Source of the DNA: a virus
Virus record (IMG/VR): IMGVR_UViG_3300022745_000046
Span: 15,502-47,501 of that record
DNA: 32,000 bases
Reading direction: 5' to 3' (one strand)
Below the pieces are notes generated by a model, which saw only the letters and a list, made by a program, of their open reading frames with translations, was not told the DNA's origin and made no database searches. Below, one piece after another: positions 19,499-28,170 of this stretch. The translations under genes were made by a program, and so were the position numbers. Each line of letters begins with the position of its first letter. The stretch's first letter is position 1.

Positions 19499-19554
19499 TT
19501 TGAAGCAAAAGATTCAAGACACATACTTACTTTGTAAACTCTTGGAGTCTAAAA

Positions 19555-20040
19555 ATGAAGATCAAACGATCAGTCCTTGAAAGCATCATTAAAGAAGAGC
19601 TTGCTGCTCACATCAGAAGTCTCACAGAAGCAGATGAACCTGATGTTGTTGATGCCGAAAAAGAAGACAAAAAGTCAAAAGATAAGAAGAATTCTGACAA
19701 GAATGCTGAAAAGAAGCCAGCAAAAGAGCCTGTCAAGAATCAAGCAAAAGATCTCAAGGTAGATGATGATGAAGCAGATAAGCCTCTTGAGAAAGATGTT
19801 GCTGATCCTGAAGCCGATGCAGAGTCTGAAGATGCAGAAGATGTGACTGGCGGAAAGATTGCCGATGAAATAACTGGCAAGACAATTCAGTCCGTAACGA
19901 TGGAGCCCAAGTCAAAGACTCTTCCAGGAGCAATAGAAGTCAATTTTACATTCAAAGAAATTCAAGATCCACTGAAGATTCTTGTTACGAAGTCTGGACA
20001 GGTAAAGTTTTACTTCAAGGGACTTCATAACAAGATGTAA
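19555..20040 (+). CDS. hypothetical protein with a highly charged Lys/Asp/Glu low-complexity centre
   Basis: SD GGAG. The central ~80 aa is KEDKKSKDKKNSDKNAEKKPAKEPVKNQAKDLKVDDDEADKPLEKDVADPEADAESEDAEDV. A short beta-rich C-terminal domain follows. Confidence 0.5.
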   Translation: MKIKRSVLESIIKEELAAHIRSLTEADEPDVVDAEKEDKKSKDKKNSDKNAEKKPAKEPVKNQAKDLKVDDDEADKPLEKDVADPEADAESEDAEDVTGGKIADEITGKTIQSVTMEPKSKTLPGAIEVNFTFKEIQDPLKILVTKSGQVKFYFKGLHNKM

Positions 20041-20532: not shown

Positions 20533-20901
20533 ATGGCTCCCAAGAAGAATGAGACAAGTGAGTTGCTTAATAGAGTCGAGGTGAAGCTCGATCTGTTCAA
20601 GGAACACTTTGACGGAAACATGACAGAGGTCTCAAAGAGATTCTCAGAAGTCCAGACTCAGATGAATGGCATTGATGGAATTCTTGTAAAGCAACAAGCC
20701 ATTCTTGACGAACACGTTAGAAGAACGAATCTGCTTGAAACAAAAGTAGAGAATGACAAGAGAATTCTAGAAGGAAAGATAGAACCTCTTGAGAAGCAAG
20801 CATTCACATTCAAACTTGCTTTAAAGCTTATTGCTGGTCTCGCTGCTGCAGGTGGCGGTGCTATTGGTATAAAGGAGATTGTCGCTCTACTTATTGGGTG
20901 A
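20533..20901 (+). CDS. coiled-coil protein with C-terminal hydrophobic (tail-anchor-like) segment
   Basis: SD AGGGTAAG. Heptad-like charged N-terminal ~90 aa. C-terminal LALKLIAGLAAAGGGAIGIKEIVALLIG. Its 3' end overlaps the SD/start region of the giant ORF. Confidence 0.55.
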   Translation: MAPKKNETSELLNRVEVKLDLFKEHFDGNMTEVSKRFSEVQTQMNGIDGILVKQQAILDEHVRRTNLLETKVENDKRILEGKIEPLEKQAFTFKLALKLIAGLAAAGGGAIGIKEIVALLIG

Positions 20902-20914
20902 GAGGACAATCAAA

Positions 20915-23900
20915 TTGAATCCAAAACTTAACGTAAGACAAGGTGCTGCAGGCTCTCGTGGAAATGGCGGAGGCGGCAAGCCTGGGTACCCACTCCCAGA
21001 TAATCTCAAGAACAATCTAGCTCCAGTTGAGGAAGATCTTCTTTCTCTTTCTCCTGTTGACTTTTCTGTTTCAAAGAAACAACACAATGATTCTGACTTT
21101 GTAAAGAAGTCAGATGTTTTAGACATTGTTGTCAAGAGTGTTATTTCAAAACTTCTTGGAGAAGGTGGAGCAGCTGTCAAGGGAGACAGAATAGAGAAGA
21201 AAGATATTGCTCCGACACTTGAGAAATTCTCAAAAGAAGTTCTTTCAAAACTCAAGCACAAGTGGGCAGGTCCAATTGGATCTACTGGAAAGAAGTCAAC
21301 AAGCGGTGATATAGACATTGGCTTCGATTCAGATCTTTCAATTGGTGATGTCGAGAAGATTGTAGATGATCTTGGACTTGAAAACAAAGCAATGAAGGGA
21401 CTTGGGGTTATCAGCATAAAGTTCCCTCAAGTTGATAGTGAGCAACAGGAAAATGGCAAGCACGTTCAAATAGACCTCATGTTCGGTCCAAGAGAGTGGA
21501 TCGAATTTGCATTTTATTCTCCAAGTGAAGGTGAGTCACAGTATTCTGGTGTTCAAGCAAGAGCTCTCTTCATCGCAATGATGAAGGCAGTCACGGGTCA
21601 TTCAGTTTCTCCAGCAAGGGGATTCTTCACGAGCGGAGATAAGAGCAAGGATAAGAAGTACATGAATGATCCAAAGCAAGCTGCTGCTCTCTTGAGTGCA
21701 AAAAGCTCAGAGCAGTGGTCTGTCGACGATCTAAATCAACCATTTGAAAAGATCTGGCTAAAGGCAAAGAAGAGCTTCACTCCTGAGCAAATAGAACAAG
21801 TCAAGAATACAATGAAGGAATTCATGGGAAGCATAAAGAAGCCCGTTCCTAAGGAGCTTGATGAAGCTTCAAGGAAGGGAATGCCAACTGGAATTCAGCA
21901 TCTTGAAGACTTGAATTATGAAGACTTCGTAACATTCCTTGAGAAATATCAGAGTCTTGAGTTAGATGGTGGTCTTGAAGTTTCTGAGAAAGTAGACGGT
22001 TCAGCTGCTCTCGTATTCGGTGTCGAGAATGGAAAACTCTGGACTCAGTCAAAGAAGGGCATGAAGTTCTTCTCATCATCACAGTATGGTGACAAGCCTA
22101 TGTTCAAGCCACTCAGAATGGCCCACGAAGCACTCCAATCAAAGAGTAAGGAGATTATAGGTGCCTGGCCAAAAGACATAGAATTCATGACTGGAGAGAT
22201 CCTATACACAAAGATCCCTAACACAATTGAGTATGGTCCAAATGTGATCATGATTCACGGTGTTCAGAAAAAAGACGGATCTGTTATAAGCGACGAAGAG
22301 TCTAGAAAGCTTGCAACTGCAGTGACAACTGCAGCTCATGGAAAGCTAAATGACGGTCAAGAAGAGTGGAAGTTTGAGTACAAGAGAATTATTCCAAACA
22401 AAGACGTCATGCTTGATGTCAAGAATGAGTATGATTCTCTTGGAGATGTTCTCAAGAGACTCAGAGAACTTGAACCAAACAAGTTAAAGAAAGACGGTAA
22501 GGGACCTTACAAGGCTGCTCTTGAAAGCTTCAAAGCAATTCAGCTTGCAGTCAAGAAGAAGCTTCTCACTCAGCTTAGAAAGCAGAAATCTGTTTACGGA
22601 CCCGAAGGCGGAGCAATAGAGGGAATTGTCTTCAGAGATCTTGACTCTGGTGGGATGGTCAAGCTTGTTGACAAGGATCTTTTCTCAAAGCTCAATCAGT
22701 TTCTTTGGAGTTTCAGAAATGATCTCGACAGAGGAAATAAAGTCGGTGACAAGATGGAGCTCGGAGTATTCCAGAAGTTCCTACAGAATGTTGGCAAAAA
22801 CGTAATCGGTTCAGAAGACATAAGACTCACAACATTTGTCTCGAGACTCAAGAAAATTCAGGATGAGATCCAATTCCCAGAAAATGTAGATACTGCTGAA
22901 AAGAAAGCCGACTATACTCTCGCTTACTACATCAAGAAGAATAATTTGATGTCTGGAGATTACATTCTTCAGTTTGAGAAAGCAGTAGCTGATGCGAAGA
23001 AGAATTATGATGAAGTCAAAGCATCTTGGGATAAGAGAAAGCAAGATGACATCAACTATGAAATAAAAGACGACGAGGGGAATGTCGTAAAGACTGTCAA
23101 GATGGACAAGCTCATCAAGGACAGAACTGATACTTCGTATGAAGAGATGGGAAAGCTTATTGACTCGATGAAGTCAACTGCTGAAGTCATCAAAGGAATG
23201 TCAAATGACGACACAAAGAAGACTGCTCTTCTCAAACTTGTCATGGGGCAGAATAGATTCAACAAGCTTGTTGGAAATGCCGATGATGAAGAACAGGCGA
23301 ATGAGTCAATAGCAATCCTTGAAAAGGATGATGTTTCTGACAAGAAGTTTGATCATGAGAGACAAGTTCTCAATTCATTTAAGGAAAAGCTGGCAAGCAA
23401 AGGAATGAATGCTGACAGCATGAAGGAACTTGGCTCTGGTAATAATGGCTCGGTCTTTGAATTGTCAGACGGAAGAGTTCTCAAGATAACAAAAGATGAT
23501 TCTGAAGCAAGAACTGCAAATCATCTTAAAGGAAAGAAACTTAAGCACGTCATCTTTATTCACGATGTTTTTGCTTTCCCAATCAGGAGGGGAGTAAAGT
23601 GGTACGGTATTGTCGAAGATAAAGCAGAACCGCTTCAAGACGAGGAAAGATTTGACAGTGCAACAAAAGACGTTATAAGAAGTGTAACTGCTGACGGTGA
23701 AGTTCATCATAATCCTTGGACAATGTCGTGGGGTCTCATAAAGAAGAAAGCTCTTCACAATGCATGGGATGAAGAAGTCACTCAAGAAAATCTCGACTAT
23801 CTAGAAGAACTCAGGTTCCCAGATCTTATGAAGGAACTTGAGAAGAATAGAGTCAATTATTCAGATGTTCACGGCGGAAACTTCATGATGAAGAATGGAG

Positions 23901-26900
23901 TTCTTGTTCTTGTAGATCTTGGCGGTCGCTCAGAGTCTCCCGGAAAGCCACCAAATGTTCTTGAGAAGAAGTTAAGAGAAGAACAACACAAAGAGATTCC
24001 TGCAATACTCAAGAAATTTGCCGATAAACTTGAGAAGAAGGGAATAAAGATTAAGAATGAAACTCCACTCGGCTCTGGATCAAGAGGCCAGGCTTTTGAA
24101 ACTCAAGATGGGAAAGTTCTGAAGATAACAAATGACGCTTCTGAAGCTAAAGCATCAATGAAGTTGAAAGATTCAAATAGCGAGCATCTTACAAAAGTTC
24201 TTGATGTTTTCAAGTTCAACCTGAGAGTCGGAAATAGAGAGTTCTTCGGTATTCTTCAGGAAAAGCTTGATAAGCTTTCTCATAAAGAATCATTTGAACT
24301 TGAAAGAGCAATAGACAATTCTCTTCTCAGAATGATTTCACCTGGAAAGATAGAGACATGGGAAACTTTCAAGAGCAATGCAGAGAACATAATTGACAGA
24401 CACAACAGAGATAAAGAAAAATTCTTGAATTCTCTGAAGATTCTTGAAAAATTCAATGTCGACAAAATAATGGATGAGCTGTATCAAGCAAGAATACACT
24501 ACACTGATTATCATGCTGGTAACTTTATGAAGCGTGGTGATAAGTATGTTCTGATAGACTTGGGTTATTCAAAGTCTGAAGGTGCACAAGAGCCACCTAT
24601 TCTTGAAAGGATAGCTCAGATGTCACAGAATTCACTCAGGGAAGCGACAAGTGATCAAGTAGGTGTTACTATAGGTCGCTTTCAGCCTTTTCATGCGGGT
24701 CACGCAGAGATTATAAGAAACCTCACAAAGAAGTTCAACAAGGTCATCGTGATCATTGCTGGAAACTCAAAGGAAAAGAAGAATCCTTTCTCGTTTGAGT
24801 TGAGAAAAGAGATAATGAAAAAGTCTCTTCCTGATGTTTTCTCAAAGCTAGAGATTCACAAAGCTGAAATAGAAGGAAAGGGTTCGGGTTTCATTCCAGG
24901 CATCATTTCTGAGCTTGTCGGAATGGGTAAGACCAAACTCACTCCAGACACTGCGTTCCATGTTCTTGTCGGAGAAGACAGAATTGAAACAATAAAAAAA
25001 CAGTTTGATCTTGCAAAGAATGCAAGAGAGAATAAAGGAATCGCCTTCAATTTTGATCTTGATGCTGTCATGATTCAAGCTCTTCCCGATGTCAAGAATG
25101 ACGATGATTCTGGAAGAGTTTCTGGCACCAAAGTTAGAGAAGCTCTTGCTAGTGATAACAAGGAGGAGGTCAAGAAGTTAATGGATCCTCATCTTGTTTC
25201 AAATGAATCTGATTTTGAAAAGATTTACTCTGAACTTAAGAATCAACTGTCAGCAAGTCAACCTGTCAAGAAGAAAGAGAAAGTTACAGAAGCTCTCTCG
25301 ACATACTTTGATAAACATGATGTCGAAGATGTTGTAACACAGAATGAAGAAGAGCTAAAGAAGAGAGGAATTGAGGTCGGTGGAGAACTTGGATCTGGCA
25401 AGGATGGTGTTGCGTATCAAGTAAACAATAACAGAGCCTTGAAGGTCACAACTGACGTTGGCGAAGCTCAGACTGCTCTTAAGATCATTTCAAGTGGCAA
25501 GAATCTGAAGCACGTAGTTCATTTCTTTGATGTGTTCAGATTTAGAAAGGGAGTCAAGAAAAATATAGAACTCTTTGGAATTGTCACAGAAAGATTGACA
25601 AAGCTTTCAAGAGATGAAGAAGAGAAGTACGATTTCATTTCAGCATTTTGGTTGACAGACGAGAAAGATTCAAGATCAAATCAAATTCTTGACGCAATCA
25701 GAGAGGGAAACTATGACAAGCTTCTTAACATTGTTTATGAAGTTTTCCTTGAAGCAGAAAGAAAAGGTGATCCGCTTGCTGTGGTAGAAGCATCAACTGC
25801 TCCAACTGCAAAGCATGGAGTGTTTAGAAAAAACCCATCTCAACAAAAGGCCCCTCAAATAGACAAAAAGCCTCAAGGTATAAAGAGCATCGCTGGAAGA
25901 AATCCAGAAGATATAGCAAATAGAAAGTTTGACGTTTACAAGAAAACAGCAGAGCACTTCAAGCTTCGTGAAATGATTCAGGATCTGAAATCTCTTGGAA
26001 TAGAATTTTCAGATTTTCACTCGGGAAATGTTATGAAAAGAGGAAATGATTACGTCATCAATGATCTTGGAAGGTCGGGTGGTGGTCTTGATAAATCCGG
26101 AATAAAGCATCTTGAATCAAAGAATCCAGATGACGTTCTTGAATCTATAACTGAGATGGTTATTTCAGAACTTGGAGCAATGAATGGATACGGATTCAGC
26201 CAGACAGGTTTGAATGCAGGGTCTTCAGCTGTTTCAAGATTCAAAAACAGAGTTGATCCCGACTCAGAAGAGTTGTGGCAGAATCAATTGTCAAGAGTAA
26301 GTTTAAAGAATCCTAATTCAGATCTGCAGGAAGACAATCAAGAGATGTTCTCTTCAGGAGAAGTAGATTCTCAGAAGCTTGGAAAGCTTGAGGAAGAGAA
26401 GTGGATCAAGTGGTCAGAAAAAACTGACACAGTTGACTTTGATTTGAAGAAGAGAGCCGGTTCAGGAAGAGGAGAAGCTAAGCTTGCTGCTGAACTTGAG
26501 CTTAGAGGATACGATGTAAAAGAAGAGAGTGAAGGAAAGGGAGAAGGATCATTTGACCTTCTTGTAAATGGGAAGCGCTGGGAAGTTAAAGAGTTCAAAC
26601 CAATAAGAATAGAAACGACAGGACAAAAGCAGATTAGAACAACTCTGAACTTTTTCTATTCATTCTCAGAATCTATTAAGCAAGCACTTGAAGAAATAAA
26701 GACTCTAAATCTTGGAGAAGATGTTTTCAAGATTGGAAAGCTAAATTCTCCATCTCTTGAAAAGTTTGCTGAGAAATCAATGAGCGCAGTTACGAATGGA
26801 AACGTCCCAGTTGGATTGTCTGGTTTTTCAAAAAGCGCTGCTCATCCAAACTATCTTGAAGTTGCAAAAGCTCTTGACTCATTCATAAAAGAATCTGAGA

Positions 26901-27646
26901 AAGCAAAGAAAAGTGGCAAGCTAAAGATCTCTCTAGGCGATGGGCAAGATGCAAAAGACTTGTTCAGCGGAGATATGGATATCTCTGACATAAAATACTT
27001 GATGAAGATGCTTAAGAAGTCAGCTCCTCAAGGATCAGTTAGTGATCTGAATGACATTGGTGCTCTTCAAATTCTAGAAAGTTCTCTCACTGAGAATGGA
27101 ATAAACAAGACAAACTTGACTCAGGAAGTTGTCAATCACTGGAAAGAAGCATTCGATCCAGAAAAGATTCTCGGTGAAGATGAAAAGATTATCATAGTTG
27201 ATAAGGAAAAGGGATTCTTTATCATGCAACCAAAAGATCTTCTTAAGTGGTACGGACCAGCTGGAATTTCCAAGTCAACTCAGCAACTTCGTCCCAGAAA
27301 GGAACTTAAGACAGCAGGACAAGTCCAGCCTCAGCCAGGTGAACAGAAACCAAAGAAGCCAAAGACTCAAGGACAAGCTACATCAAAGAAGACAAAACTG
27401 CCTCAGGGTCAAATAGACTTCATGAGTCCGGAGTATAAGAACATTCTTGATAAGAAGTCAAAGGTTGCTTCAGATGCACTCGATGTGTTCAAGAGAAAGC
27501 TGAGCATTCTTGATAATGCAAAGAAGAGAAAGACAAGTCCAGAAGAACTTCAGAAGAAAGAACAAGACGTCAAGAAAGCAGAAGAAGAAGCAAGAAAGCT
27601 ATTTAGCAAAGTAGGGCTTGATTTTCCGAACATAGAGCAAACTTGA
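20915..27646 (+). CDS. giant multidomain enzyme: Pol-beta NTase + Rnl1-like RNA ligase + 3x protein-kinase-like + NMN adenylyltransferase + PD-(D/E)xK-like + basic C-terminal tail
   Basis: The frame is open from 20879 to TGA 27644-27646. The start is uncertain because the first in-frame ATG is about 540 nt in. TTG 20915 has the best SD (GAGAGGA 20900-20906, 8-nt spacer). TTG 20879 lies only 1 nt after its GGAG. Domain motifs are listed as separate features. Confidence 0.85.
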   Translation: MNPKLNVRQGAAGSRGNGGGGKPGYPLPDNLKNNLAPVEEDLLSLSPVDFSVSKKQHNDSDFVKKSDVLDIVVKSVISKLLGEGGAAVKGDRIEKKDIAPTLEKFSKEVLSKLKHKWAGPIGSTGKKSTSGDIDIGFDSDLSIGDVEKIVDDLGLENKAMKGLGVISIKFPQVDSEQQENGKHVQIDLMFGPREWIEFAFYSPSEGESQYSGVQARALFIAMMKAVTGHSVSPARGFFTSGDKSKDKKYMNDPKQAAALLSAKSSEQWSVDDLNQPFEKIWLKAKKSFTPEQIEQVKNTMKEFMGSIKKPVPKELDEASRKGMPTGIQHLEDLNYEDFVTFLEKYQSLELDGGLEVSEKVDGSAALVFGVENGKLWTQSKKGMKFFSSSQYGDKPMFKPLRMAHEALQSKSKEIIGAWPKDIEFMTGEILYTKIPNTIEYGPNVIMIHGVQKKDGSVISDEESRKLATAVTTAAHGKLNDGQEEWKFEYKRIIPNKDVMLDVKNEYDSLGDVLKRLRELEPNKLKKDGKGPYKAALESFKAIQLAVKKKLLTQLRKQKSVYGPEGGAIEGIVFRDLDSGGMVKLVDKDLFSKLNQFLWSFRNDLDRGNKVGDKMELGVFQKFLQNVGKNVIGSEDIRLTTFVSRLKKIQDEIQFPENVDTAEKKADYTLAYYIKKNNLMSGDYILQFEKAVADAKKNYDEVKASWDKRKQDDINYEIKDDEGNVVKTVKMDKLIKDRTDTSYEEMGKLIDSMKSTAEVIKGMSNDDTKKTALLKLVMGQNRFNKLVGNADDEEQANESIAILEKDDVSDKKFDHERQVLNSFKEKLASKGMNADSMKELGSGNNGSVFELSDGRVLKITKDDSEARTANHLKGKKLKHVIFIHDVFAFPIRRGVKWYGIVEDKAEPLQDEERFDSATKDVIRSVTADGEVHHNPWTMSWGLIKKKALHNAWDEEVTQENLDYLEELRFPDLMKELEKNRVNYSDVHGGNFMMKNGVLVLVDLGGRSESPGKPPNVLEKKLREEQHKEIPAILKKFADKLEKKGIKIKNETPLGSGSRGQAFETQDGKVLKITNDASEAKASMKLKDSNSEHLTKVLDVFKFNLRVGNREFFGILQEKLDKLSHKESFELERAIDNSLLRMISPGKIETWETFKSNAENIIDRHNRDKEKFLNSLKILEKFNVDKIMDELYQARIHYTDYHAGNFMKRGDKYVLIDLGYSKSEGAQEPPILERIAQMSQNSLREATSDQVGVTIGRFQPFHAGHAEIIRNLTKKFNKVIVIIAGNSKEKKNPFSFELRKEIMKKSLPDVFSKLEIHKAEIEGKGSGFIPGIISELVGMGKTKLTPDTAFHVLVGEDRIETIKKQFDLAKNARENKGIAFNFDLDAVMIQALPDVKNDDDSGRVSGTKVREALASDNKEEVKKLMDPHLVSNESDFEKIYSELKNQLSASQPVKKKEKVTEALSTYFDKHDVEDVVTQNEEELKKRGIEVGGELGSGKDGVAYQVNNNRALKVTTDVGEAQTALKIISSGKNLKHVVHFFDVFRFRKGVKKNIELFGIVTERLTKLSRDEEEKYDFISAFWLTDEKDSRSNQILDAIREGNYDKLLNIVYEVFLEAERKGDPLAVVEASTAPTAKHGVFRKNPSQQKAPQIDKKPQGIKSIAGRNPEDIANRKFDVYKKTAEHFKLREMIQDLKSLGIEFSDFHSGNVMKRGNDYVINDLGRSGGGLDKSGIKHLESKNPDDVLESITEMVISELGAMNGYGFSQTGLNAGSSAVSRFKNRVDPDSEELWQNQLSRVSLKNPNSDLQEDNQEMFSSGEVDSQKLGKLEEEKWIKWSEKTDTVDFDLKKRAGSGRGEAKLAAELELRGYDVKEESEGKGEGSFDLLVNGKRWEVKEFKPIRIETTGQKQIRTTLNFFYSFSESIKQALEEIKTLNLGEDVFKIGKLNSPSLEKFAEKSMSAVTNGNVPVGLSGFSKSAAHPNYLEVAKALDSFIKESEKAKKSGKLKISLGDGQDAKDLFSGDMDISDIKYLMKMLKKSAPQGSVSDLNDIGALQILESSLTENGINKTNLTQEVVNHWKEAFDPEKILGEDEKIIIVDKEKGFFIMQPKDLLKWYGPAGISKSTQQLRPRKELKTAGQVQPQPGEQKPKKPKTQGQATSKKTKLPQGQIDFMSPEYKNILDKKSKVASDALDVFKRKLSILDNAKKRKTSPEELQKKEQDVKKAEEEARKLFSKVGLDFPNIEQT
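21180..21500 (+). other. domain: Pol-beta-superfamily nucleotidyltransferase
   Basis: IGSTGKKSTSGDIDIGFD (21275-21328) matches hG[GS]x9-13DhDh; compare Pol beta GSFRRGAESSGDMDVLL. A third-carboxylate strand candidate is HVQIDLMF (Asp at 21473-21475). Confidence 0.55.
21900..22740 (+). other. domain: ATP-dependent RNA ligase, T4 Rnl1-like (covalent nucleotidyltransferase)
   Basis: Motif I EKVDGSA (Lys codon 21989-21991; T4 Rnl1 is KEDGSL). Motif III-like MTGEILYTK. Motif IV EGIVFRD (22619-22639). Motif V MVKLVDKD (about 22655-22678). Confidence 0.6.
23410..23940 (+). other. domain: protein-kinase-like module 1
   Basis: Gly loop LGSGNNGSVF (from 23429). Beta3 Lys in RVLKITKD. SEA helix-C Glu. 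Catalytic loop YSDVHGGNFM (Asp 23864-23866). DFG-equivalent VDLGG (about 23912-23926). Confidence 0.6.
24050..24580 (+). other. domain: protein-kinase-like module 2
   Basis: LGSGSRGQAF (from 24068). KVLKITND. YTDYHAGNFM (Asp 24506-24508). IDLGYS. Confidence 0.6.
24655..25200 (+). other. domain: NMN adenylyltransferase (NadM/NatV-type HxGH nucleotidyltransferase)
   Basis: VGVTIGRFQPFHAGHAEII (His codons 24692-24694 and 24701-24703). VIVIIAGNSKEKKNPFSFELRKEIM. C-terminal SGTKVREAL (about 25121-25147), equivalent to the ISSTxxR motif. Confidence 0.7.
25370..26080 (+). other. domain: protein-kinase-like module 3 (with a larger insert)
   Basis: LGSGKDGVAY (from about 25387). RALKVTTD. FSDFHSGNVM (Asp 26012-26014). 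INDLGRS. Confidence 0.6.
26400..26700 (+). other. domain: PD-(D/E)xK nuclease-like module
   Basis: GSGRGEAKLAAELELRGYDV...GSFDLLVNGKRWEVKEFK. Asp at 26555-26557 and E-V-K at 26582-26590 fit D-x(n)-E-x-K. This is a weak single-motif call. Confidence 0.35.
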
Positions 27647-28170
27647 TGCAGAGTTGGAATGCTATATTCGTAGAAGACAAAGAGTATCAACTTCTCAATA
27701 GCAGTCTAACTTCAATAAAATTCAGTAATGCTTCAAAATTTGACCTCGCTCTTCTCATGAGTAAAATGGAAGAGCGAGGTGTTCCTTTGAGTTATACTTC
27801 TGAACTCACAGAGATCAAATTCACTCAACTTAGAAATGGAGATCACGGAGATTATCTGAATGGAGTTATCCGTCTCTCTTCAGATAAAACAACTCAATCT
27901 CTTATGGACAAGATCTTTGTTCATGAGCTTGCTCATCATGTTGATTGCACGAATAATATCACTGATGATGACTCTATCTTGAGAGAGAAGAAAAAGAAGT
28001 CGAAGTACATGAAAGACAAGTACGCAAGAAAAGATGTGTTTGAGTATTTTGCTGTTGGCTTTGAAGTCTTTTATTGTGGTACAGATGAAGAAAAAAGATT
28101 CATGAAGAAGAAAAATCCCATTCTTTTTTCAGTCATTTCTAAACTTCATAAAGAGCATTGCAAGAAATAA
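27646..28170 (+). CDS. small HExxH zinc-metallopeptidase-like protein
   Basis: ATG 27646 overlaps the giant ORF stop (TGATG). IFVHELAHHVD contains HExxH. No other motif recognised. Confidence 0.55.
   Translation: MQSWNAIFVEDKEYQLLNSSLTSIKFSNASKFDLALLMSKMEERGVPLSYTSELTEIKFTQLRNGDHGDYLNGVIRLSSDKTTQSLMDKIFVHELAHHVDCTNNITDDDSILREKKKKSKYMKDKYARKDVFEYFAVGFEVFYCGTDEEKRFMKKKNPILFSVISKLHKEHCKK

Follow-up and report, generated by a model that had tools for sequence, protein, structure and literature searches.

Which reaction is encoded by a giant phage gene whose N-terminal third carries the motifs of a nucleotidyltransferase (NTase) followed by those of a ligase, and on which nucleic acid would the two act? 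The question is raised by a stretch of 32,000 nucleotides (positions 15,502 to 47,501 of the IMG/VR virus record IMGVR_UViG_3300022745_000046), which was analysed at its full length and is called the window here. It makes up the final 32 kb of that record, which is 47.5 kb long, and every gene in the window, with all the features described for it below, lies on the + strand. A sequence-only reading of the window had proposed that positions 21180-22740 hold a Pol-beta NTase and an Rnl1-like ligase which may form an RNA 3'-end repair and sealing unit. This site is inside a single open frame (20879-27646), in the N-terminal third of a gene (20915-27646) that encodes a polyvalent protein of 2,243 residues (database entry P0002). 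The reading favoured here, to which we give about an even chance, is that the pair would be a two-enzyme "fill-and-seal" RNA repair unit inside this polyvalent phage protein, working like RlaP together with an RNA ligase. What has held of the earlier proposal is the linked NTase-ligase pair and the RNA-ligase-like character of its second member; the Rnl1 label and the healing of ends by kinases have not.

The nucleotidyltransferase and ligase domains

The domain map was made by cutting the protein into pieces and searching each of them. The NTase domain, hereafter NT, takes up residues ~95-330 (21161-21868) and the ligase domain, hereafter LIG, residues ~331-630 (21869-22768), or to ~680 by the piecewise searches. 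According to alignment A1, the AlphaFold2 (AF2) model and Foldseek, NT is composed of a palm, a thumb-like part and a C-terminal helical bundle. Its catalytic motif (21278-21316) has the pattern G134-S135-x8-D144-I-D146 and is read in the string GSTGKKSTSGDIDI (residues 134-147, nt 21278-21319); the third catalytic carboxylate is D199 of QIDLMF (21473-21475). In the alignment of 20 NT domains the G, S, D, D and D of G-S...G-D-x-D and Q-x-D are invariant, the latter motif being represented by columns Q108 and D110 of A1.

The AF2 model of NT (pLDDT 92.9) shows a mixed alpha/beta palm fold. When it was compared with the PDB by Foldseek, the best 50 of 193 significant matches were all to family-X polymerases (pol lambda, beta, mu and TdT), with E ~1e-5, probability 1.00 and TM-scores of 0.43-0.49 over 170-210 aligned columns that cover the palm and the thumb. 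In BFVD the top matches were uncharacterised phage proteins of 240-340 aa (TM-score 0.65-0.75), one of them from Agrobacterium jumbo phage Atu_ph07, followed by giant-virus PolX; the sole CCA/PAP-head-like match there was poor (TMq 0.29, probability 0.72). The A1 profile gave nothing significant against the sequences of solved structures, and a Pfam scan of 20 NT members at E<=1 found no PolX, RlaP (PF10127), CCA, CD-NTase or MenT family; one weak match to a poly(A)-polymerase palm family was seen in a distant member. The 8-kDa and HhH domains are absent, the domain beginning one helix before the palm and residues 1-94 being low-complexity or part of a conserved peptide. These two domains are likewise missing from minimal viral PolX. 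Judged from the model, NT is a member of the Pol-beta superfamily with a predicted intact two-metal catalytic triad, and its closest known relatives are the minimal family-X polymerases. It cannot be filed under family X proper, because no Pfam PolX match was obtained in the 20 members and the TM-scores are only 0.43-0.49.

A CD-NTase-like signalling role for this domain had been kept in view by the sequence-only reading, and comparison with CCA-adding enzymes, MenT/AbiEii-type NTases and CD-NTases had been suggested. None of these resembles NT. They gave no Pfam match in the 20 members and were absent among the best 50 of the 193 PDB matches, where family-X polymerases are nearest, and these identities were rejected.

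LIG has the nucleotidyltransferase core of a divergent, RNA-ligase-like ligase of the ATP type, as seen in alignments A2 and A4, the AF2 model and Foldseek. Motif I (SEKVDGS) holds K371 (21989-21991), the predicted AMP acceptor, which is invariant in alignments A2, A4 and A5. Motif III (GEILY) holds E440 (22196-22198), the nearly invariant E110 of A2/A4, which is invariant in A5. Motif IV (EGIVF, with E581-G582) and a variant motif V (VKLVDK, with K595-L-V-D-K599) follow at 22619-22675 with invariant E, G, K, V and D. The K, D and G of motif I and the E and G of motif IV are invariant with distant relatives included. Across 21 aligned segments of LIG plus the helical region behind it, the invariant or near-invariant positions are H341, S-E-K371-x-D-G-S, K392, E440, P-N-x-x-E-Y-G, Y-G-P-E-G-G-x-x-E581-G582 and K595-x-V-D. 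Motif V of the family reads K-x-V-D-[KR] as against the canonical K-x-K; its first lysine is invariant and its second basic residue stands at +4, not at +2. The arrangement that had first drawn attention to the site, with ligase motifs ~230 aa after the NTase motif set, is borne out, K371 lying 225 aa past the DxD, and both sets belong to real, conserved catalytic domains. A check for an adenylatable lysine, also suggested there, found motif-I K371 kept and invariant.

The AF2 model of LIG with its helical region (pLDDT 80.8) comprises the core, into which a pair of long helices is inserted ahead of motif IV, and a part after motif V that is helical for the most part. This last region (22769-23413, to residue ~845) occurs in nearly all family members and is without an OB fold: only helices and short hairpins follow motif V in the model, with no OB-like barrel and no motif VI region. 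By Foldseek E-value, T4 Rnl2 was the top match (5e-5), followed by archaeal Rnl3 (1.5e-4), the Naegleria RNA ligase NgrRnl (1.6e-3), TbREL1 (3.4e-3) and, further down, T4 Rnl1 (4e-3, rank 17) and Trl1 (4.7e-3). DNA ligases (LigIV, that of African swine fever virus (ASFV), LigD and Lig1) were interleaved from 1.7e-3 downwards, and the probability was 1.00 for RNA ligases and DNA ligases.

Among the ligase-clan families of Pfam, only the RNA-ligase families PF09511 and PF09414 are touched by LIG members. PF09511 (Rnl1 type) is matched below threshold, around motif I, by 13 of the 21 giant-clade members (best E 4e-7), the query scoring 20.3 bits against a cut-off of 28.3 over model positions 38-94 only. 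PF09414 (Rnl2 type) is matched by 45 of the 79 stand-alone relatives over positions 3-170 of its 171, below or near threshold (best E 1.9e-7; first member 24.5 bits against a cut-off of 27); the query itself has no match to it. No match to the DNA-ligase (PF01068) and capping-enzyme families was obtained in the 100 members scanned. Against PDB sequences the LIG profiles (A2 with the helical part; A4, the core with distant members) gave nothing significant, and hhalign of A2 against single T4 Rnl1 and Rnl2 sequences was uninformative.

The term "Rnl1-like" is therefore too specific, since the query stays under the PF09511 cut-off and touches it at motif I only, T4 Rnl1 stands at rank 17 where T4 Rnl2 is the top fold match, and the relatives lean to PF09414. 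The alternative that the segment aligns with DNA ligases or capping enzymes, which had been named as a check, did not materialise: RNA ligases rank first, the OB domain is lacking and the corresponding Pfam families are unmatched. A ligase fold with an adenylatable lysine, K371, is supported by the model. "RNA-ligase-like" appears to be the best label for LIG, with Rnl2 as the closest type and Rnl3, Rnl5 and Rnl1 after it. The family was counted by a profile search of 1.84 billion representatives and comprises 794 clusters at 50% identity (E<=1e-3), or 511 at E<=1e-10, many of them stand-alone proteins of 350-500 aa.

Recurrence of the pair and its possible function

The pairing of the two domains was surveyed with NT and LIG hidden Markov models over all retrieved loci. 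They are fused in the order NT-LIG in the giant proteins and in the reverse order, LIG-NT, in a 901-aa protein (L026/L027). In Sinorhizobium phage Phosso they are encoded by overlapping genes (446/447), LIG then NT, and in L022-L025 by genes 0.2-1.6 kb apart; in proteins P0036 and P0037, NT stands directly before a Pfam DUF6267 domain. By these arrangements and their sequences NT and LIG are shown to be an evolutionarily conserved pair in large phages, and their recurrence in several independent arrangements is the strongest argument for joint action.

In Phosso (L003, 326000-334392), Ralstonia phage RsoM2USA (L002) and L022-L025, a DnaB-like helicase gene is followed by two or three small genes, LIG and then NT (not in RsoM2USA), with LIG lying 1-1.5 kb downstream of the helicase. 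The LIG and NT genes of the cultured phages Phosso and RsoM2USA are all annotated as hypothetical. Searched against the phage database, the giant gene of the window had no megablast match and two weak tblastn matches only, to RsoM2USA_438 and Phosso 447. LIG is also joined to the NMNAT-like HIGH NTase that the giant protein carries further on. These two domains alone make proteins of ~700 aa in both orders (L019 2365-4476; L021 2986-5082), so that the pair is a core conserved outside the giant proteins as well. NAD+ might be used, or needed, by the ligase.

That no Pnkp-type end-healing motif lies near the pair had been noticed before, and the observation stands. There is no Walker A motif in the 2,243-aa protein, the only two D-x-D-x-[TV] strings, at residues 71 and 1393, are both outside a HAD context, and a Pfam scan of the giant protein found no PNK, HAD, 2H or metallophosphoesterase domain. 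AAA_33/PNK and 2H families had no match in the 47.5-kb contig, which is only 23% of the genome, so that absence from the phage cannot be claimed. The kinase-like modules, to which end healing had been attributed, are poor candidates for it. Two of them, shortened and with weak APH/ABC1 Pfam matches, are found at 23414-24628 and a third at 25364-26248; the three are ~180-290 residues long and display the protein-kinase signatures G-loop, Lys, HxGN and DLG without a P-loop. Their alignment (A6) gave only non-significant matches against PDB sequences, mostly to Ser/Thr protein kinases. By their motifs they are taken to be protein-kinase-like and not P-loop polynucleotide kinases.

The presence of a tRNA with a UUU anticodon was confirmed by ARAGORN and Rfam (51.1 bits), which place a tRNA-Lys(UUU) at 9287-9359. 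In the Rfam alignment its anticodon loop is UAUUUAA, with an A in place of the expected U33. This tRNA gene is followed, 4 nt further on, by a second, weaker tRNA-like sequence (9363-9432; 32 bits) with a shortened anticodon loop, and a small open reading frame (ORF) just upstream of the tRNA genes (8875-9183), in the tail gene block, matches PTH2 (peptidyl-tRNA hydrolase 2; E 4.9e-6). An investment of the phage in translation rescue is evident from these genes, which are no tie between the ligase and tRNA-Lys.

Under the favoured reading a host nuclease would break an RNA and trim nucleotides from it, the 3'-OH would be extended by NT by one or a few nucleotides, and LIG, after self-adenylylation on K371, would close the break by way of AMP transfer to the 5'-phosphate. 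A tRNA or another RNA of translation would be the likely target, possibly base-paired as for Rnl2. Nicks that contain RNA may be an alternative substrate. Ends with a 2',3'-cyclic phosphate and a 5'-OH would be healed from elsewhere, by another phage gene, by the host or by a 2H domain as in the homologue P0024; alternatively, the substrates may already have 3'-OH and 5'-phosphate ends. Our choice of RNA over DNA as substrate, the nucleotide cofactor and the origin of end healing are inferred. The RNA-repair flavour of the system is given by the 2H domain next to LIG in P0024 and by the tRNA-Lys(UUU), the second tRNA-like gene and the PTH2-like gene of the phage.

Several observations weigh against RNA as the substrate or against so simple a scheme. 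By sequence, NT and LIG match none of the solved ligases or polymerases, the Pfam matches of LIG are under the curated cut-offs, and the Foldseek E-values of RNA and DNA ligases overlap (5e-5 to 1e-2). Motif V is without the second lysine at +2, and the nearest fold of NT is a DNA polymerase family. The genes are always found in replication modules, where DnaB is the neighbour in the Phosso/RsoM2USA lineage and PolA and SSB/UvsX stand on either side here. Neither the protein nor the contig, which is 23% of the genome, yielded an end-healing enzyme, and a simple RNA-repair scheme leaves unexplained why LIG is almost always fused with an NMNAT-like domain.

The replication context is the main support for a role directed at DNA. 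The pair could be a DNA repair or replication accessory in which gap filling of the Pol-X kind, perhaps with ribonucleotides, is followed by sealing of the nick, a 3'-ribonucleotide included, in a manner resembling base excision repair (BER) or non-homologous end joining (NHEJ), which would protect or complete the phage genome. We consider this possible but doubtful. The gene order around the pair is kept (a DnaB-like helicase 1-1.5 kb upstream; PolA, HD, SSB, UvsX, FEN and DnaB around the giant gene) and no annotated fold is nearer to NT than that of the family-X DNA polymerases. There is also precedent in that Pol X of ASFV is paired with a ligase, LigD and Pol mu make ribonucleotide patches, and Rnl2-type enzymes seal nicks with a 3'-RNA strand. 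However, the LIG model lacks an OB domain and a motif VI region, no DNA-ligase Pfam family was matched in the 100 members scanned, RNA ligases come first in the structural ranking, and NT is devoid of the DNA-binding domains (8-kDa and HhH) found in family X. No canonical DNA ligase was found in five metagenomic relatives (one of 296 kb), all of them incomplete, but each of the two complete genomes has a canonical DNA ligase in addition to LIG, of the NAD-dependent kind in Phosso and of the ATP-dependent kind in RsoM2USA, and LIG as the only DNA ligase was rejected for these cultured relatives. It is also conceivable, if unlikely, that NT, the OB-less Rnl2-like ligase and the NMNAT-like HIGH NTase make up a new early phage repair system, an NHEJ/BER-like "ribo-patch" of the phage genome or of primer-containing intermediates that would counter restriction, the ligase being perhaps fuelled by locally made NAD+. 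This would explain the placement beside DnaB and the replisome, the polymerase-X fold and the NMNAT fusion.

Closer to the sequence-only reading is a T4-like reversal of a PrrC-type anticodon nuclease acting on tRNA-Lys, with sealing by an Rnl1-type ligase and healing by the kinase-like modules or the host. The tRNA-Lys(UUU) of the same contig, the weak PF09511 matches at motif I and the general precedent of T4 Pnkp/Rnl1 (PMC7824862) all agree with such a system. Yet LIG falls outside Rnl1 and its wider family leans to Rnl2, the kinase modules have no P-loop and no phosphatase was found, and the tRNA gene is 11.5 kb off in the tail module, phage tRNAs being common for other reasons, so that we hold this reading to be decidedly improbable. 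Polyvalent proteins are known to combine unrelated activities, and their known Pol-beta NTases are predicted protein modifiers (PMC5512222); the giant protein has kinases and an NMNAT-like domain as well. The two domains could then be mere neighbours and independent effectors, the NTase modifying a protein or making or destroying a nucleotide signal and the ligase-like domain adenylylating another substrate. This seems very unlikely to us in view of the NT-LIG linkage, which persists outside polyvalent proteins as two-gene or two-domain units in either order, and of the fold of NT, which is polymerase-like with a thumb-like subdomain and not of the minimal MNT/NTox45 type; CD-NTase, MenT and AbiEii are absent among the matches listed.

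The giant protein and its genomic setting

The protein that would house the putative RNA repair unit has the domain order N-terminal peptide, NT, LIG, helical region, kinase-like 1, kinase-like 2, HIGH NTase, kinase-like 3 and C-terminal D...EVK domain. It belongs to a set of 37 homologous giant proteins from metagenomes (1,284-2,485 aa, P0002 included) of variable domain order. Of these, 33-34 contain LIG, the helical region, one or more kinase-like modules and the HIGH NTase, and 22 contain NT. The TTG at 20915 is placed 9 nt past a GAGAGG ribosome-binding site and 13 nt past the TGA of the preceding gene. It is the real start, and the resulting N-terminus agrees with the starts of homologues (MNPKLNVRQG...) and with the 2,243-aa entry P0002. 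PADLOC gave no match on the whole giant protein.

The only domain of the giant protein recognised by Pfam is the cytidylyltransferase-like HIGH nucleotidyltransferase (residues 1264-1421), for which searches of PHROGs and PDB sequences gave NMN adenylyltransferases as nearest. This HIGH-motif domain (NMNAT/NadM-like, PF01467; 24644-25348) is the one most constantly fused to LIG. The C-terminal domain (26438-27250), with a PD-(D/E)xK-like signature, D...E-V-K-E, that is invariant, is present in the five closest homologues only, and its profile (alignment A3) had no significant match in the PDB. At the other end of the protein, the conserved peptide NVRQG...G(K/T)PGYP(V/L)P (20930-21000) precedes NT or LIG by 40-200 residues in most homologues. 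It is usually N-terminal (residues ~18-40) and is internal in P0014 (276), P0015 (284) and P0047 (443), always upstream of NT or LIG. This peptide may be a processing/cleavage or targeting signal. A similar YPGYPVP is held by the subtilase-like protein adjoining the LIG-NT gene of L027.

The giant gene is followed by the gene of a zincin metallopeptidase of a lethal-factor-like Pfam family (27646-28170), the ATG of which overlaps the giant-gene stop (TGATG). The same zincin gene also stands 3' of the giant gene in L007 (16640-17143) and L008 (15076-15495). The overlapping codons suggest translational coupling of the two genes, and the peptidase may process the giant protein. Additional domains in the homologues are a lytic transglycosylase (SLT, PF01464) in eight proteins and InPase, 2H phosphoesterase, Nudix and ABC1-type kinase signatures. 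With at least seven disparate modules and an associated zincin peptidase gene, the giant protein has the composition that defines polyvalent proteins, which were described by Iyer et al. in 2017 as multi-enzyme, zincin-centred proteins with truncated kinases that are thought to be injected with the DNA (PMC5512222). Probably the giant protein is a multi-tool that is either delivered or synthesised early and that the adjacent zincin peptidase then cuts up; the predicted transglycosylase domains of the eight homologues are an indirect hint of virion packaging and injection. In the 2017 survey the 2H domains were never seen with RNA ligases, the word "ligase" being confined to that passage (3 occurrences) (PMC5512222); in the homologue P0024 a 2H domain is next to LIG. 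An identity with the "Swiss Army Knife" RNA-repair protein was considered and not assigned, its link being a sub-threshold 2H-SAK match in one homologue.

The contig is jumbo-phage-like, and its completeness of 23% by CheckV corresponds to a genome of ~200 kb. The window holds structural genes (tail tube, baseplate hub) and replication genes (a family-A polymerase fragment, an HD hydrolase, SSB and a UvsX-like recombinase), and the upstream 15.5 kb of the contig hold the major capsid protein, the head-tail adaptor and the tail sheath. The gene order of the giant lineage is kept, with large proteins, PolA, HD, three small genes, the giant gene, the zincin peptidase, SSB, UvsX, FEN, DnaB and RNR; here the HD hydrolase sits 1.4 kb upstream of the giant gene. 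A 161-aa ORF (19555-20040), located three genes before the giant one, has a Walker-A-like ADEITGKT at about residue 103 of 161 (residue 120 of the stop-to-stop frame 19504-20037), and Pfam and PHROG searches with it were without match. In the part of the contig upstream of the window, a 476-aa ORF (L031 5500-6930) directly after the major capsid gene matches homing/HNH-endonuclease PHROGs.

Comparison with known systems

Most of what is known of phage RNA repair comes from T4 (Pnkp, Rnl1, Rnl2) and from the predicted pairs of RlaP with a ligase. The principle of a ligase with a Pol-beta NTase is already known, as are polyvalent phage proteins. By sequence criteria both enzyme families are undescribed, no curated Pfam threshold being reached and no solved relative being found, and DUF6267, the nearest Pfam relative of LIG, had no mention in the literature searched. 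The polyvalent-protein setting of NT-LIG and its neighbourhood of replisome genes are unusual.

The large ligase family is delimited here, with a constant Pol-X-like NTase partner in jumbo phages that include cultivable ones (Phosso, and RsoM2USA with the ligase). If RNA repair is its true function, the pair would be a third ligase/NTase combination in the counter-defence repertoire of phages, polyvalent proteins would be able to carry RNA ligases, an association absent for the 2H domains of the 2017 survey, and the pair might help to find out what Rnl2-type ligases do in nature. If it acts on DNA, an OB-less ligase for the repair of DNA ends would be more surprising. The NT and LIG enzymes could also serve as reagents, as ligases and terminal transferases.

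The giant protein resembles the polyvalent proteins of the 2017 survey (PMC5512222) in its many unrelated catalytic domains, its zincin, its truncated kinases and the InPase, 2H and lytic transglycosylase domains of its homologues. It differs from them in that a ligase is a core domain, the peptidase is encoded by a separate downstream gene and is not fused, and the giant gene is found in a replication module and not beside head genes. With DUF6267 (PF19782), LIG has in common the position after NT in P0036 and P0037 and the motifs H-[IV]-E-D, KxDG, EG and KLVD[KR]. In contrast, the hhalign alignment is confined to motifs IV-V (probability 6.8%), and only two of the 79 relatives touch the model, weakly. 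Homology of LIG and DUF6267 is likely.

NT resembles the family-X polymerases, above all the minimal viral ones (ASFV Pol X, giant-virus PolX), in that its palm, with GS-x8-DxD and a third Asp, leads into a thumb-like helix-hairpin; by eye only, its SGDxD string and its G-x-S-V-S-x-x-G-F hairpin are also similar to PolX motifs. Unlike these enzymes it has an additional C-terminal helical bundle, and neither an 8-kDa/HhH domain nor a Pfam PolX match. LIG recalls T4 Rnl1 and Trl1 (PF09511) by its weak motif-I matches, and the 2H, ligase and kinases of P0024 recall the ligase, kinase and cyclic phosphodiesterase set of Trl1, whereas the kinases of the giant protein are not P-loop kinases and T4 Rnl1 is at rank 17 in the fold search. 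The likeness to T4 Rnl2 (PF09414), TbREL1, NgrRnl and archaeal Rnl3 extends to KxDG, motifs III and IV, the absence of an OB domain and a helical C-terminal part. LIG departs from Rnl2 in its motif V (K-x-V-D-[KR], not K-x-K), in a helical insert of ~50 residues before motif IV, in a conserved N-terminal H-[LI]-[ED]-D motif and in scores under the Pfam cut-off.

RlaP adds one or two NMP to damaged RNA 3' ends prior to ligation, and the ligated tRNA regains its function (PMC12776372); its distribution mirrors that of RNA ligases in jumbo phages (PMC7824862). Compared with pairs of RlaP (PF10127) and an RNA ligase, NT has no PF10127 match (20 members) and a fold nearest to family-X polymerases, LIG is below the curated thresholds of both PF09511 and PF09414, and the pair is embedded in a polyvalent protein of 2,243 aa. 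What is alike in the two systems is a Pol-beta NTase that is genomically coupled to a covalent-nucleotidyltransferase ligase, with a predicted order of reactions in which nucleotides are added at a 3'-OH and the ends are then sealed (PMC12776372, PMC7824862).

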